Below, piece by piece: positions 7,239-13,671 of a stretch of DNA of 57,912 nucleotides. This stretch comes from Coleofasciculus sp. B1-GNL1-01. GTDB taxonomy: Bacteria > Cyanobacteriota > Cyanobacteriia > Cyanobacteriales > Coleofasciculaceae. The stretch is from NCBI GenBank assembly GCA_040220235.1, contig JAVJTO010000012.1. One strand, written 5' to 3'. The position numbers were made by a program, and so were the translations under genes. The notes beneath the pieces were generated by a model, which worked only from the letters and a program-made list of their open reading frames with translations, had not been told where the DNA came from and did no database searches. The stretch's first letter is position 1. Each line of letters begins with the position of its first letter.

Positions 7239-7846
7239 AGCGGCTTTATGGTTTGACGAAGGTTATTTTTTACCAAATCATGTCGGCTAACTTATATCAT
7301 GTCCGCCTCAGCGGTACAATTCTGGTAGCGGTGGACGTGCCAGAATCCGCCGTGGGTCAGGTAGCAACGACTGGAGAACCGCCGATTAAGAAACTTGATT
7401 GCAGCTTTAATGTAATCCAGACGTTAATTGAATTATTTCCGCGATCGCTTGGGGGATTAAATCTATATTTACCTGCAATCTGCTGCAATAACAGCAGTGC
7501 GTTAGCGTAGTGGCGTGGCACACCTTAATTGGTGGATTAGAATTGTAGGGGCGCACCGACGTGCGCCCGATTTAACGATAAATCTATTCCACTATTTTAG
7601 CTGTGCCACGCCAGTAGGGTGCGTTAGGCGTTGATTTAGTGTCAATTGTGAGGATTAAATTAGTTAGCGCCGTAACGCACCAATTCTGGGATAGGATAAC
7701 TACATCTTGCTAAACTCGATGTAGTCTTAGTAGACCCGATTAAATTCAACTGGTGTATTGAATCCTGGGTGCGATTCACCGACGCTATCGCTTGACTTGA
7801 CAGGCTTTGGAGAGGGTAGACAGAAGGGGCGATCGCTTACTTCCCT

Positions 7847-8010
7847 TCAACTTTCCTCATCACTTTTGAGGAAATCACCCACGTACAATCGGATAAATTC
7901 TGCTGCTGCATCAGGATTGAGACTATGAAGTGCCTCAGCAATCTGCACCACGGTTTCGGCTGAGGGATCTCGATTTTCGTGAAACCAGTGAAATACAACT
8001 GAACAATTTG
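7847..8010 (-). pseudogene. C-terminal half of an XRE-family HTH regulator
   Basis: SVVFHWFHENRDPSAETVVQIAEALHSLNPDAAAEFIRLY matches the second half of cyanobacterial XRE-HTH proteins; the upstream part of the ORF does not. Confidence 0.55.
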
Positions 8011-8102
8011 GAATTAAATTTAACTGTTGCTCAGGTATTTGGTTGGTTAAAGACAGGCAAATATTGAGACTACAGCAATTGATATAGCCATTGTGTATTA
8101 TT

Positions 8103-9290
8103 TTACTCATCTTTTGGTAAAAACAAGGTATTTTCAATTTCCTCTCTGACCGGACGAGTTACATTAGAATTGCTATTCAGCTCCTCCACCAGACATCTAT
8201 TGGCATTATAATATTGCTTCAGTAAATCCCGTTGATCGTCGTTCAACTGTAAATCGTGACCTAAAATCTTTCTTATTTTATCCACCCAGTCTTGACCATT
8301 ATTTTGCCGCCAATCTTCAAAACGATCTTTCTCTTTATCAATATCACGCAGTTCAGCTTGAATTTGTTGTAATGCTTGCTTCAATTCCGGCTCAAAGTCA
8401 AGGGCAAAGACAGAAACAATAACATTTGCTGGATCAGTATTAGCGTTATCAAAAAAGGCAATATCAAGAACAACGTCACAGGCACGATTAAAGCAAGAGA
8501 AAAATCGACGAGCTTTACCAGGTGAACAATTAGGGTCAAGTTTACGGGCAAATGTAAGACCAAGCAACCAAATGAGAGCCAGGTAAAATGCTCGGACTTT
8601 TACGGGTTGGTAATGAGGTTCAGTTTGAAGAGATTTTTTATTTACCCACGTAAGAAGTTCTTGTAATTTCTCATTGTTAGCTATTAGCGCATCAGCTTCT
8701 GCTTTCTTTTGCCATAAAGTGGCTTCGTCAGCGTTTACGGTACTAGCTGTCTGTGAACTATCTTCGGATGATTCTTTGTCGGTTGCTCCAAGTTCTTTCA
8801 GCTCATCCACAGACTGTTTGATAAAGTGATTAACTAACCAATCACGGGCAGGAGAGAAGTTGCGATCAAAATTCAGATATATCGCGCCTACTAATGCCTC
8901 GAACATCTCACCAAATAGATCAACTTGTTTGCTTATCTCTTTATCTTTTTCACTTCCTCCAAGTCTACAGATATTCCTTAAGTTTAACTTGTATGCAAAT
9001 TCACAAGCTTTTTTCCGGCGCACCAGGTTACTTTTTAATTCAGTAATTTTACCTTGATTTAGAGTAGAGTCATTTTCATGTAAATAATCAACTACAACAG
9101 CATTAAGAATTGCATCGCCCAGAATTGCCTGTCTTCTGTAATCACACTCCTGCTTGTGTTTTTGCTGCGAATTTAAGTTGCGGTCTTCATAGATATATGA
9201 AGGATGCGTCAGGGCAATTTCCAGCAACTCCGTATGGTTAAAATCAGCAATGTTGATTGCCTTTTTAACAGCCTCTATATTTATATCCAT
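8103..9290 (-). CDS. RNase III domain fused to a NACHT-associated C-terminal helical (NCH2-like) domain
   Basis: N-terminal ALTHPSY, RRQAILGDAIL, KSNLV and FGEMFEALVGAIYL form an RNase III domain; no dsRBD. The C-terminal KLQELLTWVNKKS...VRAFYLAL...LLKQYYNANRCLVEELNS...VREEIENTLFLP matches the tail of cyanobacterial NACHT proteins. Confidence 0.85.
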   Translation of the reverse strand: MDINIEAVKKAINIADFNHTELLEIALTHPSYIYEDRNLNSQQKHKQECDYRRQAILGDAILNAVVVDYLHENDSTLNQGKITELKSNLVRRKKACEFAYKLNLRNICRLGGSEKDKEISKQVDLFGEMFEALVGAIYLNFDRNFSPARDWLVNHFIKQSVDELKELGATDKESSEDSSQTASTVNADEATLWQKKAEADALIANNEKLQELLTWVNKKSLQTEPHYQPVKVRAFYLALIWLLGLTFARKLDPNCSPGKARRFFSCFNRACDVVLDIAFFDNANTDPANVIVSVFALDFEPELKQALQQIQAELRDIDKEKDRFEDWRQNNGQDWVDKIRKILGHDLQLNDDQRDLLKQYYNANRCLVEELNSNSNVTRPVREEIENTLFLPKDE

Positions 9291-9343
9291 AATTCAAACT
9301 ATAAATTGAACTGATAGTAGCAATTTTATGTGCAATCTAGGTT

Positions 9344-9832
9344 TTAAATTTCCTTAAATTTTCCATCTGAGTCAACATATCCAACGACTCGTGAAGATTT
9401 AGTAACACTGTTGGACTGTAATTCGGTTAGGTCTCTTTCTAAATTCAGTGCAGTTTTACAATTTTCACTAACAAAAACTACGAAACAATCAAAATCATCT
9501 TTCTTGCTATCACTAGCAATATCTTTGATTTTTATTTCCAATAGGGTTTTGTAATTAGCTATCGAAGAATTCATTATATGGACTTTTATACTCTTGAGTT
9601 TTTCGTCCTTGTCTGTGATTAGAAACTTTAAACGCTTGTCCGGAACCTTGATAATGTCCTGGTGAGGATTCTGACGCTTTAACCACTCAAAAATGGCTGC
9701 TTCTACTGTTGCTACCGAGTCATAGACTCTATCTGCATAAGCATAGAAAGCCCTATCGTCATCTCGATGAGCCAGCAAATAGGAGCGTAATTCCTTTTTG
9801 CTCATTGTCTGAAAATTAGGTTGCATTGTCAT
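9344..9832 (-). CDS. DUF6887-like N-terminus plus an unknown alpha/beta C-terminal domain
   Basis: MQPNFQTMSKKELRSYLLAHRDDDRAFYAYADR is the DUF6887-type motif; it is followed by about 120 additional residues. Confidence 0.75.
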   Translation of the reverse strand: MTMQPNFQTMSKKELRSYLLAHRDDDRAFYAYADRVYDSVATVEAAIFEWLKRQNPHQDIIKVPDKRLKFLITDKDEKLKSIKVHIMNSSIANYKTLLEIKIKDIASDSKKDDFDCFVVFVSENCKTALNLERDLTELQSNSVTKSSRVVGYVDSDGKFKEI

Positions 9833-10001
9833 AAATTAACTCACCATCAGGGTCAATTAATATTTCTATATCGTCCCCAGCCAGAATAAACAGATTGCCT
9901 GTCCGTTCATCAATGCGAACAAGGAAAATAGGCTGGTACATCTTGGTTAAAGCATAACAAACTAAGTAACACTTCGATGCCTGGGCTGCCGTTGGAAAAA
10001 T
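9816..10001 (-). CDS. DUF6888-like small protein (ATT start or frameshifted)
   Basis: Manual translation: IFPTAAQASKCYLVCYALTKMYQPIFLVRIDERTGNLFILAGDDIEILIDPDGELIYDNAT*. GGAGG lies 7 nt before ATT at 10001, and the ORF overlaps the start of the DUF6887-like gene. Confidence 0.7.
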   Translation of the reverse strand: MFPTAAQASKCYLVCYALTKMYQPIFLVRIDERTGNLFILAGDDIEILIDPDGELIYDNAT

Positions 10002-10104
10002 TTTTCATCCTCCATCCACTTCAGTCTATCTAGTTTACATTTTTCCAGCCCTTGACACTTTAATCCTGACCCTATAGCTACACAACGATCGCCCGGACAG
10101 AATG

Positions 10105-11955
10105 TTAAACTGACTGCCAAAGCTTAATTTTGCGATCGCTCCCTGCACTGACAAGAATATCCCCATGGGGACTAAAGGCTAAAGAACGAACGGGTTGAGA
10201 ATGCCCTGACAACTTGGTTAATCGTTGACCATTTTGAACATCCCATAGTTCAATTAGCGCACCACTTCCACTGGCGAGAACTTGACTATCGGGACTAAAT
10301 GCCAAAGCCGTCACACCTGGAGACTCTGGTGCAAACGTCCGTATTGATTTACCGGTTTGGGGATTCCAGAGGGTGATTGCTCGACTGCTACCACTGGCAA
10401 GCATCAGACCATCTGGGCTAAATTCTAGACAGGTAATGTTTGTAGACTGATTGGTAAACGTCATTAACGGTTTACCATTATGAGGATTCCACAGTTCTAG
10501 AGTGCCATTTAAACTGCCCACGGCACAACTATGACCATTCGGATTAAAGGCAATATGTCGGGCTGAATCTGAATTTCCGGCTAAAATACGCAGCAATTTG
10601 CCTGTCCGTACTGCCCAAAGTTTAATTTCCCAATCCCCGCTACTAATTAATATCTGACCATTGGGACTAAATACAATATCTCGCACCCGATCCGCACGAC
10701 TGACTAAGGTATTAATCAATTTTCCGGTGCTAAGTGACCACAGTTTAATCGTTTTATCAAAACTGCCACTGGCTAAAATCTGACCATTTGGACTAATTGC
10801 CACACAGGTTACACGGTGGCTATGTCCAGTTAAGTTATGCAAAGGTTTGCCGAGGCGTAATGCCCACAGTTTAATGCTTTTGTCATAACTGCCACTGACT
10901 AACGTCTTACCGTCTGGACTGATAGCAATGGCACGAATCTCATCTGTATGTCCAGAAAGAGTCCGACGCAGTTTCACCTTTTCCCAGGGATTGGGTGAGG
11001 TGGAAATGGGCAATAACTGAGTAATTAGAGACATCAGTCCTTTGGCTTTGGACTGACTTGGCGATCGCGTCTTGATCAGAATCGGTGCTGGTGGCGGTAA
11101 CTCAGGCTTGGGCGCAATAATGTCTTCAATACAACGGCGAATCATGGCTGGGGTCTGCGGTCGCTGACCAGGAAACGTCGCCATGAGATAATCTATTAAA
11201 TCGGCTAATTCTTTGCTAACTTGCGACGCACTCTCTCGCCATTGCAACTTACCCGTCCGGGGGTGAGACTCAAAATCGTTGGGAGATTTGCCTGTGAATA
11301 AATAGACAAAGGTGCGACCTAGGGCAAAGAAATCTGATTGCGCTACGGCTTTACCCTCCATTTGTTCCGGTGGTGTATATCCACTGGAGATAATCACGGT
11401 GCCTGTTTCATCTTGTTTTTGCCGTTGTAAGTAGGTTTCGGTGATCTCGCGCACCGCCCCAAAGTCAATTAATGCCAGTTGTCCATTGGGTCGCAGGATA
11501 ATATTGGAGGGTTTGATATCTCGATGGATTAGCTCTTGTTGGTGCAGTTGTTCTAAAATATCCACCAATTGTTTCAACCACGCGATCGCTTGGTCTTGAC
11601 TGAGAACAGGTTTTTTGCGACCGGATCGCCACTGCTTCAACGTGATCCCCTCAATTTTCTCCATGATTAAGCAGTGCAGGGAGACGTCTGTCCCCTGCGA
11701 CCAGACAAAATAGCCATCTGACTTAACTCTGGGAATACCAGGATGTTGAAGCCGACTCAAGACCATAGCTTCACGCTGGAACAAGGATACAGCTTTTTCT
11801 TTAGCGTCATAGCTGTAAAACCGATCCAGATTCAGAACTTTCAGGACTTTGGCAATTCCCTGATCATCGACTTCAAAGGTTTGACTAAACCCACCTTTAC
11901 CGAGTGTTCGCAGGACTCGATAACGGTTTTGAAGCAACAGGTTGGGGTATATCAT
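10105..11955 (-). CDS. Ser/Thr protein kinase with 7 C-terminal WD40 repeats
   Basis: LGKGGFSQT, VLKVL, IHRDIKPSN, LIDFG and GYTPPEQ motifs; repeated GH...V..IAISPDG..L.SGS.D..IKLW units. Confidence 0.96.
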   Translation of the reverse strand: MIYPNLLLQNRYRVLRTLGKGGFSQTFEVDDQGIAKVLKVLNLDRFYSYDAKEKAVSLFQREAMVLSRLQHPGIPRVKSDGYFVWSQGTDVSLHCLIMEKIEGITLKQWRSGRKKPVLSQDQAIAWLKQLVDILEQLHQQELIHRDIKPSNIILRPNGQLALIDFGAVREITETYLQRQKQDETGTVIISSGYTPPEQMEGKAVAQSDFFALGRTFVYLFTGKSPNDFESHPRTGKLQWRESASQVSKELADLIDYLMATFPGQRPQTPAMIRRCIEDIIAPKPELPPPAPILIKTRSPSQSKAKGLMSLITQLLPISTSPNPWEKVKLRRTLSGHTDEIRAIAISPDGKTLVSGSYDKSIKLWALRLGKPLHNLTGHSHRVTCVAISPNGQILASGSFDKTIKLWSLSTGKLINTLVSRADRVRDIVFSPNGQILISSGDWEIKLWAVRTGKLLRILAGNSDSARHIAFNPNGHSCAVGSLNGTLELWNPHNGKPLMTFTNQSTNITCLEFSPDGLMLASGSSRAITLWNPQTGKSIRTFAPESPGVTALAFSPDSQVLASGSGALIELWDVQNGQRLTKLSGHSQPVRSLAFSPHGDILVSAGSDRKIKLWQSV

Positions 11956-12045
11956 GAGGGGGGTTAGAAACAGTAATCTTGGCTACGTCGCAGTATCACT
12001 TATCTCTTTTTGCTTCGCCACTTATACCAAACCTCTAGGGTCTGC

Positions 12046-13671
12046 TTACAATCTGCCTTCAATCGCATCCAGTAAGTTGATCGTGTTAAGTCGTGCATAT
12101 CCCACCATTTGGTCAGATGTTCCTTCTAGTATAGAAAGAATCGCTTTAAGTTGATCATCTAGGCGCTCTGTGTCTTTTAACACATACAATCGATCCCTGA
12201 CGCGAGTAAGAATTAGGCGAATTTGTAGCGTCTTCAGATCATCGGATACCTGTTCTTTGACTAGGGCATGACTCCTGAGTAGCCCCAGTTGACTTACGGA
12301 TTTGGTTTGACAAACAGTTGCAATTTGCTGACACACCTGGTCAATAAATTGATTGGTGGCATACTTCAACAAAGCCGGCTGAATGGTAAAAATCGCTTCA
12401 TTAGCTTCGGCATTGGGTTCTTTCTCCAACAGAGATCGGCGTTTGAGGGATTCCAACGCTGCCAGGAGTTTCGATAAGGATGTCACCGAAAACTTCATTG
12501 CCTCTTTTAATTCCGAAATTGAAAGCGGCTGATTTTCCAGTGCCAACCAATAAATGATTTCCTGTTCTAAAGGAGATAAACGTTGGAATTGTTGATTAAA
12601 AACATTCGGTAGAATATCACCAATAATTAATGTACTTTGCTCTAAAAATTCCGAAATATTTCCGTCAAATATTTCTTGGATAGTTGTCGCCATGATTTTT
12701 AGGGCTAACGGATTGCCGCGATAAAGCTGAATCAGGGCATCAGCACTTGACTTTAAGGAAGAAAATCCTTTCGTTTCTAAAATGCGTTTAGCATCCTCCG
12801 CACTTAAGCCTTTGAGTTTGAGTTCTCGAACCGGGAGTTTTGTACCCGCTAATGAGGCAATTTCTATCGGTTTTTCCCGACTAATCAGCAGTAAGCAACT
12901 TTGATGGCGTTCTTCAGCCATGCGCCGAATCAGTTCCCCATAGTCTTGATACCCGTCTCGATAATGTCCGGCTAACCTGCCACTACTCATGATAGTTTCC
13001 ACATCATCGAGGAGCAACAAACAGCGATGGCGTTGGCAGTAGTCCATCAGTTGCGAAATTTGACCGTTAGTGGTATCTGGTGACTCTCGTTCCTTACCCT
13101 CCGATAAAAAGTCGATGATCTCAGTGAGGAGATCACCCAAGGGTGAAGCATGACGTAGCGATCGCCAGATCACATATTCAAAGGACGATTGTACCTGTTC
13201 AGCTACCTTCGCTGCCAGGGCGGTTTTACCGATTCCCCCCATTCCCAGGAGTGCTACGATACGACAGCGTTCTTTGACAATCCATTGGTCTAGCTGTTTG
13301 AGTTCCGACGTGCGACCGTAAAAGATGGAGATGTCAATGGTTTCTCCCCAATCTTGACGGCTACGACTATTGGAGGGTGTCGTCTTGCCTTGATCGACAA
13401 TTTCTTCCCAGTTGAGTCCTAAAACGTGACAATATGCTTTAAAGGCATGAGCGCTAATGGGTTGTCTTCCGGCTAAAAACCGCTTCCATGTTCCTTGGGA
13501 GAGTCCAGTGGCATAAGGTCCCCCAGTATACCACGGTTTATCCGGTTCCAGTATTCGACTAGCCTCAAGCAAGCAGGTGTCGTCATCGTCAAGACTCCAA
13601 CTCCACCCCTTTTCGTTTCTGGCTTGCTTGATTTTAGCGAGTCCCCATTGAGAGGCTTTAAGAGTCGGCAC
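12046..13671 (-). CDS. NB-ARC/STAND NTPase with N-terminal HTH-like domain, lacking C-terminal WD40 repeats
   Basis: DWGE..D...FYGR, Walker A GMGGIGKT, Walker B LLLLDDVE, GNPLALK and LESLKRRSLL winged helix. The protein ends at GYARLNTINLL, where homologues normally continue into repeats. Confidence 0.9.
   Translation of the reverse strand: MPTLKASQWGLAKIKQARNEKGWSWSLDDDDTCLLEASRILEPDKPWYTGGPYATGLSQGTWKRFLAGRQPISAHAFKAYCHVLGLNWEEIVDQGKTTPSNSRSRQDWGETIDISIFYGRTSELKQLDQWIVKERCRIVALLGMGGIGKTALAAKVAEQVQSSFEYVIWRSLRHASPLGDLLTEIIDFLSEGKERESPDTTNGQISQLMDYCQRHRCLLLLDDVETIMSSGRLAGHYRDGYQDYGELIRRMAEERHQSCLLLISREKPIEIASLAGTKLPVRELKLKGLSAEDAKRILETKGFSSLKSSADALIQLYRGNPLALKIMATTIQEIFDGNISEFLEQSTLIIGDILPNVFNQQFQRLSPLEQEIIYWLALENQPLSISELKEAMKFSVTSLSKLLAALESLKRRSLLEKEPNAEANEAIFTIQPALLKYATNQFIDQVCQQIATVCQTKSVSQLGLLRSHALVKEQVSDDLKTLQIRLILTRVRDRLYVLKDTERLDDQLKAILSILEGTSDQMVGYARLNTINLLDAIEGRL

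Follow-up and report, generated by a model that had tools for sequence, protein, structure and literature searches.

The cyanobacterial bNACHT proteins of the HTH-NACHT-NCH2 type (Kibby et al, 10.1101/2022.07.19.500537) contain an N-terminal domain in the effector position, a central NACHT NTPase with Walker A/B motifs and a C-terminal tail that starts directly behind the winged helix and includes NCH2. In the available parts of that preprint, Schlafen and HEPN are given as example RNase effectors in the supplementary discussion, where RNase III is not mentioned, and the term NCH2 does not occur in the main text; statements on published work below likewise refer to the available parts of the sources cited. 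Literature searches returned no reported function of NCH2. Enzymatic effectors carried on a STAND-type C-terminal region without an NTPase are also known, as Dsr1 and a Streptomyces HEPN protein share the Avs7 sensor in the absence of the STAND NTPase (PMC13581612). Among the RNase III enzymes of cyanobacteria, a review of cyanobacterial RNases recognises, in the part available, the canonical RNase III and Mini-III only (PMC10989914).

We analysed a stretch of 57,912 nucleotides from Coleofasciculus sp. B1-GNL1-01 (contig JAVJTO010000012.1; hereafter the window), in which a minus-strand ORF of 395 aa (8103-9290) codes for an RNase III domain joined to a NACHT-type tail. The fusion has the same tail as the HTH-NACHT-NCH2 proteins and likewise has an enzyme in the N-terminal effector position, but the central NTPase is absent and the protein is therefore not a bNACHT. 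It resembles Dsr1 and the HEPN protein in carrying an enzymatic effector on a STAND-type C-terminal region without an NTPase, and differs from them in both parts: their sensors are large, TPR-type and have a capsid protein as the proven trigger (PMC13581612), whereas the tail here is ~210 aa and the effector is an RNase III domain. In literature searches that covered mainly open-access papers, no paper on an RNase III–NACHT-tail fusion was found, and the conserved fusion is apparently undescribed.

Two-part architecture of the fusion protein

The original prediction had described an RNase III domain without a dsRBD, joined to a C-terminus resembling the tail of NACHT proteins with no NTPase in between, and HMM searches upheld each of these points. 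Pfam assigned Ribonucleas_3_3 to aa 21-157 (E 3.5e-20), Ribonuclease_3 to aa 55-140 and NCH2 (PF22727) to aa 303-392 over 96/96 profile positions (E 2.9e-25), and gave no NACHT, AAA or dsrm match to the 395-aa protein at E<=1. The nuclease domain with its class-1-type fold spans aa 1-165 (8796-9290, minus strand); the score against TIGR02191 for class 1 RNase III was 98.8 bits vs a cut-off of 166.25. It is followed by an acidic low-confidence linker at aa 166-188 (8727-8795, minus strand; net charge -5, pLDDT <50 at 170-185), by the NACHT post-winged-helix helices and the middle segment (together aa 189-299; 8394-8726, minus strand) and by NCH2 (8115-8384, minus strand). The space between aa 165 and 186 is too small for an NTPase. 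In the full-length model (pTM 0.52) the linker was disordered at aa 170-185, so that the predicted mutual orientation of nuclease and tail is not fixed. The fusion protein gave no PADLOC match, and scans for promoters and terminators gave only chance-level results. Parts of the window were present in 8 metatranscriptome runs; the four inspected consisted of contigs in which the flanks were covered like the gene, and they are thus no demonstration of its transcription.

The tail at aa ~186-393 aligned in BLASTP with all of the sequence after the winged-helix motif of the host's own HTH-NACHT-NCH2 proteins (best E 1e-20), and this homology begins near aa 186, well upstream of NCH2. The host genome has 8 NCH2 matches including the fusion. 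A separate 219-aa frame consisting of a NACHT tail with NCH2 only was seen at G000:C44:136294-136950. When modelled alone, the tail formed nine helices and was all-helical (pLDDT 85.8, pTM 0.80); Foldseek gave no match at E<=0.001, ESM Atlas gave no usable match, and the best structural match (Z 6.5) was to generic helical bundles, which shows neither novelty nor relation of the fold. An Avs7-type TPR sensor was not recognised by PADLOC, nor did the structure search with the tail model give a clear match. The tail is net acidic and would thus be a poor RNA binder.

From 274 tails, 95 were sampled for a tree (FastTree, midpoint root, SH-like support), in which the RNase III-linked tails (23 single and 9 tandem) together with 4 tail-only proteins made up one clade with a support of 0.992, separate from 56 other NACHT-type tails including those of the host. 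From this single clade it follows that the fusion arose once and is old. An RNase III-NACHT-NCH2 ancestor was not found among 519 candidates of 693-2000 aa, which is weak evidence. An origin by rearrangement on the spot with one of the host's NACHT genes was considered and rejected, as the family has many members and its tails form their own clade.

The middle of the tail is variable in bNACHT proteins and fixed in the fusion. The segment aa 238-299 showed 21% identity and a length of 0-167 aa in 59 other NACHT-type tails, against 53% identity and 59-66 aa in 23 single fusions, while the flanks of this segment showed 47-48% and 55-65% identity, respectively; the NACHT tail set is more diverged overall, and the contrast in the middle segment still exceeds that in the flanks. 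Thus, the fusion family has conserved a segment in which NACHT tails are hypervariable, which would not be expected of an arms-race sensor. We infer a sensor role for the tail by analogy with its place in NACHT proteins.

The nuclease domain and its active site

The reading of the class 1 signature ERLEFLGD as RRQAILGD, with E41 lost, D45 kept and E/E at D114/E117, was confirmed when the protein was aligned to E. coli RNase III. Positions E38-D45 correspond to R52/R53/Q54/A55/I56/L57/G58/D59 (aa 52-59; 9114-9137, minus strand), E65 to Q79, and D114/E117 to E128/E131 in the second acidic motif (aa 128-131; 8898-8909, minus strand). The model of aa 1-169 matched E. coli RNase III (7r97) with a Z of 19.2 (rmsd 2.5, 151 residues aligned) and Mini-III (4oun) with a Z of 9.9. 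The domain shares with class 1 RNase III (rnc) the fold, the N-terminal ALTHxS motif and D45/E117, and differs from it by the missing dsRBD and by E38R, E41A, E65Q and D114E; lacking both the dsRBD and E41, the protein falls outside this class.

These changes were examined in an alignment of 121 single-domain-plus-tail proteins, from which 4 fragments were removed to leave 117 spanning both motifs. A55, D59, E128 and E131 were each present in 117/117, that is, the class 1 catalytic set E41, D45, D114 and E117 reads A, D, E, E in every member; R52 was found in 116/117 and Q79 in 105/117. The nuclease domain of the query has 24 acidic positions, and D59, E128 and E131 are the only ones invariant in the family (n=117). 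Judged from these sequences, the active site looks rebuilt and not decayed. Tandem relatives have lost D45 in 31/37 forms with a tail and 46/47 without, which indicates that the fold alone does not fix this residue.

The E41 position is also Ala in B. subtilis Mini-III, an enzyme that cleaves dsRNA without a dsRBD (PMC4357697), and the loss of E41 alone is thus not a mark of a dead enzyme. The fusion shares with Mini-III (MrnC) the absence of a dsRBD, the Ala at E41 and the retention of D45 and E117, and differs from it by the acid at 114, a 230-aa C-terminal extension and an accessory rather than universal occurrence. Cutting by Mini-III requires its alpha5b loop region (PMC4357697), which in the alignment is absent from the fusion family; BLASTP of the fusion against the host Mini-III was not significant (E 0.22), and no Mini-III was present among 41 PDB sequence matches to the fusion. 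With its extra tail and its place in another clade, the protein does not count as a Mini-III either.

The E. coli structure shows E41 and E117 as the ligands of metal A and D45 and E117 as those of metal B, and D114 makes no direct metal contact (PMC9291653). E. coli RNase III tolerates mutation at D114 and no substitution at E41, and is inactivated by deletion of the dsRBD (PMC10037077), while E41A was described as "weak" in vitro (PMC8708148). The double mutant E38A/E65A is active and binds long dsRNA more stably (PMC9291653). The Glu at D114 is invariant in the fusion although E. coli tolerates mutation there, which would fit a new role of this residue as a metal-A ligand. On these residue patterns, the RNase III domain of the fusion is probably catalytically active.

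Family, distribution and gene context

The protein search gave 163 matches among 3643 candidates; nearly all of the best 120 of the 163 contained both domains and had a length of 384-445 aa. Those of the 120 that carried a name were cyanobacterial, with the closest among the matches listed coming from Coleofasciculus, and databases already label family members automatically by one domain or the other. In the alignment set, 114/117 members fall within 384-445 aa, and identity among the 114 full-length members ranges from 39 to 100% (median 57%). Selection was estimated as Nei-Gojobori dN/dS over the gene for chosen pairs, with rounded values. It was about 0.12-0.33 in 8/8 distant pairs; in the five closest sequences, which have L40 replaced by Gln, it was 0.56 for the whole gene and 0.72 for the nuclease domain. 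The original prediction would have fallen had the fusion been a single degraded instance, and this architecture survey refuted that possibility: it is a conserved family under purifying selection.

Among 34 genome loci, the single fusion was intact at 20 and broken at 3 (3/23 single-fusion loci), a tandem form was present at 1, and the remaining 10 had a short form without the tail. Profile and region searches found the subfamily domain alone in proteins of about 160-220 aa; some of these end in an acidic tail, and some are plasmid-borne. Tandem forms pair a complete domain with a shortened one and occur both with the NACHT tail and without it. Fusion of this nuclease subfamily to GUN4, which is named as a C-terminal NACHT sensor in cyanobacteria (10.1101/2022.07.19.500537), was seen in 2/120 of the matches listed; one of the two was located in a genome. 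In a small tree, the subfamily (own support 0.80) fell with class-1-type domains and the tandem RNase III domains of cyanobacteria (support 0.984), away from Mini-III, so the Ala at E41 is probably convergent with that of Mini-III. The host also encodes a canonical RNase III and a Mini-III.

Several variant proteins were seen in the course of this survey. A plasmid-borne Chroococcidiopsis protein (L080:4491-5972) is a more divergent tandem RNase III-GUN4 that adjoins a methylase-helicase pair; in its first domain, too, E41 is replaced by Ala and D114 by Glu. A 318-aa tandem RNase III without a dsRBD (G000:C53:109285-110238) has degenerate acids in both domains, and in its relatives P0175, P0205 and P0224 the first domain is intact or nearly so. 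The Planktothrix-type members of 207 aa (L030-L035) occupy a fixed locus and carry Ser at D45. The Microcoleus tandem pseudo-RNase III (L100:1205-6569, L096, L101 and L102) also sits at one fixed locus and is 588 aa with the NACHT tail and ~335 aa without. At L011:5995-7605, the fusion frame continues into an antitoxin-like ORF before a RelE-like gene and reaches 536 aa; in L007 the fusion and the antitoxin-like ORF are separate. One 389-aa protein (G000:C150:6303-7469) has an N-terminal region resembling a NYN/LabA domain, followed by a canonical RNase III and a dsRBD-like end, and its GC3 is among the lowest 1.5% of long ORFs.

The gene is accessory. At E<=1e-36, the nuclease-domain profile detected the subfamily in 44/401 genomes of the order and in 3/6 other genomes of the genus; single fusions account for 12 of the 44, the genome of the window included, and are likewise present in 3/6 of the genus. 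The loci of 30/44 were inspected, the remainder having other frame lengths, and since named loci and genome handles may be the same records, these counts are not summed. The phylum count of 2/401 is a lower bound, as only 4 candidates were scored per genome. Viral copies were not found in IMG/VR by a pattern scan, and matches covering 80% of the query numbered 0/12 in phages and 0/59 in plasmids.

The slot itself varies among close relatives. In G620, 8130-9323 of the window is replaced by about 100 bases with a Uma2 gene alongside, whose 3' end and downstream flank survive in the window as a remnant at 8007-8130 (plus strand). In G454, PIN/RelB-like and HTH genes occupy the slot, and a remnant of the 3' end of this HTH gene lies at 7840-7987 (minus strand). 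In G546, 7255-9678 is missing, a deletion that leaves a 57-aa form of DUF6887. In the window, the upstream neighbours of the fusion are a gene of DUF6887 plus ~125 unassigned residues (9344-9832, minus strand) and its partner, a DUF6888 frame (9816-9998, minus strand) with no in-frame ATG at the expected start and an ATG-started ORF only from 9941. The DUF6887 gene is kept in G620, which has no RNase III gene, and is thus not an obligate partner. The wider surroundings hold a short MITE-like element at 7506-7625 with 37-nt inverted arms and many copies in the genus. They also include an HTH-NB-ARC gene that has no repeat sensor and, after it, a kinase-WD40 gene (10105-13671, minus strand); relatives conserve these two genes whether or not the RNase III gene is present. 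A split system of the fusion with the HTH-NB-ARC gene (12046-13671), the kinase-WD40 gene or DUF6887/6888 was rejected because these candidate partners persist without the fusion gene and are missing at distant loci.

At other loci the gene is solitary behind sufS, aroB, hemN, glycosyltransferases and others, in about a dozen neighbourhoods. By raw occurrence, not enrichment, housekeeping genes make up most of the neighbours, alongside generic Uma2, toxin-antitoxin and IS genes, with Uma2, PIN, RelE-like, Imm1 and IS genes frequent nearby. The neighbour scan covered 93 genes (87/108 listed neighbours and 6 slot genes); their PADLOC matches were mostly to generic domains and none was a NACHT gene. 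The gene context is not a defence island. Of the earlier proposal of a sensor-RNase defence protein, the effector-plus-NACHT-tail architecture, the fusion, its conservation and its accessory distribution stand, while a PADLOC match and defence-island neighbours are absent. Two relatives have other surroundings. A tail-less form with an acidic C-terminus (L028:2916-3578) immediately follows a type IIG/DrmMI methyltransferase gene and precedes a helicase-like one. The Microcoleus tandem lacking D45 is flanked by a vWA-PP2C pair on one side and a kinase on the other, which is the gene order of the TerY-P triad linked to defence (PMC11090510); PADLOC gave no match to these vWA-PP2C-kinase genes, and the same gap also holds Uma2 and IS genes.

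The region had been noted as AT-rich, and the gene is indeed of 38.3% GC vs 45.5% in the genome, in the lowest 2.7% of 1.2-kb windows and the lowest 3.2% of 2932 long ORFs; the GC was below that of the flanks in 14/14 loci, in one marginally. The reported gap in HIP1 sites is real (7829 to 10132) but uninformative, as gaps of at least this length make up 14.9% of the 6840 and HIP1 is missing from 41% of the 835 ORFs with 350-450 aa. Foreign origin on the basis of this gap was rejected for its ordinary length.

Putative function and alternatives

We tentatively favour the possibility that the protein is a stand-alone, tail-gated dsRNA nuclease of filamentous cyanobacteria acting in defence or stress-linked shutdown. 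In the proposed mechanism, the RNase III domains would pair to form a catalytic valley, dimerisation being assumed from the family. Glu128, one carbon longer than Asp114, would stand in for the lost Glu41 at metal A, and Asp59 with Glu131 would hold metal B. With Arg52 and Gln79 replacing the acidic E38/E65, the valley might grip long dsRNA without a dsRBD. The NACHT-derived tail on its flexible acidic linker may block or license the nuclease until it binds a partner, which might be a protein of a phage, a ligand made under stress or a NACHT-NCH2 protein of the same cell, and the released enzyme would then cleave structured host or invader RNA and arrest the cell within the filament. Against a defence nuclease, the losses of E41 and the dsRBD each cripple E. 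coli RNase III, which may apply here by analogy; the conserved middle of the tail, the missing PADLOC match, the mostly housekeeping neighbours, the dN/dS of 0.72 in the nuclease domain of the five closest sequences and the broken loci also stand against it. The tail-less forms that persist at 10/34 loci indicate that the tail is not always needed as a restraint.

The conserved, fixed-length tail and the housekeeping neighbours would also suit a constitutive accessory RNA-processing enzyme, in which the nuclease is active, the tail replaces the dsRBD for targeting or partner binding and there is no immune switch. The tail might then bring the enzyme to ribosomes, antisense pairs, toxin mRNAs or plasmid RNAs, as L3 does for Mini-III, which depends on it (PMC8708148), and cyanobacteria have several RNase III paralogues, one of which affects plasmid copy number (PMC10989914). 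Such a role is nevertheless unlikely in view of the patchy presence of the gene in about a dozen neighbourhoods, its clean absence in near relatives, the canonical RNase III and Mini-III already in the host, and the acidity of a tail that would bind RNA poorly. Quite unlikely, too, is a pseudo-nuclease that binds metal and dsRNA or dimerises without cutting, and signals as adaptor or decoy through its tail to NACHT-NCH2 proteins, by dsRNA sensing or by pairing with the host RNase III. The joint loss of E41 and the dsRBD, each crippling in E. coli (PMC10037077), the persistence of tandem and Planktothrix-type forms after the loss of D45, and the 7 other NCH2 proteins in the host speak for it. 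Yet the equivalents of D45, D114 (as Glu) and E117 are invariant in 117/117 members while the 21 other acidic positions vary, and Mini-III provides the precedent for Ala at E41. The dN/dS of 0.56 in the five closest sequences, the 3/23 broken loci and the low GC relative to flanks could be taken for a nearly neutral domain-shuffling chimaera, drifting among variable slots and decaying; one old clade, a nearly fixed length, an invariant active site and, above all, the purifying selection in distant pairs largely refute this, and we regard it as very improbable.

Beyond the tail-gated nuclease that we favour, a wider claim can be put forward that is rather doubtful as a whole: the subfamily would be an undescribed class of RNase III with a three-carboxylate site, in which D114E makes up for E41A, and a valley that is charge-reversed and works without a dsRBD. 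It would serve as an immune effector in multicellular cyanobacteria, joined directly and with no NTPase to NACHT-type C-terminal modules (the NCH2 tail and GUN4), and either phage or NACHT proteins of the same cell would activate it. If the nuclease is active, RNase III would join the list of bacterial immune-type effectors, and the fusion would represent a second natural route, besides Mini-III, to cutting dsRNA without E41 and a dsRBD. The NCH2 tail, common on cyanobacterial NACHT proteins, is here isolated on a small protein that has only two domains and offers a simple readout, which makes what this tail does or senses directly testable.
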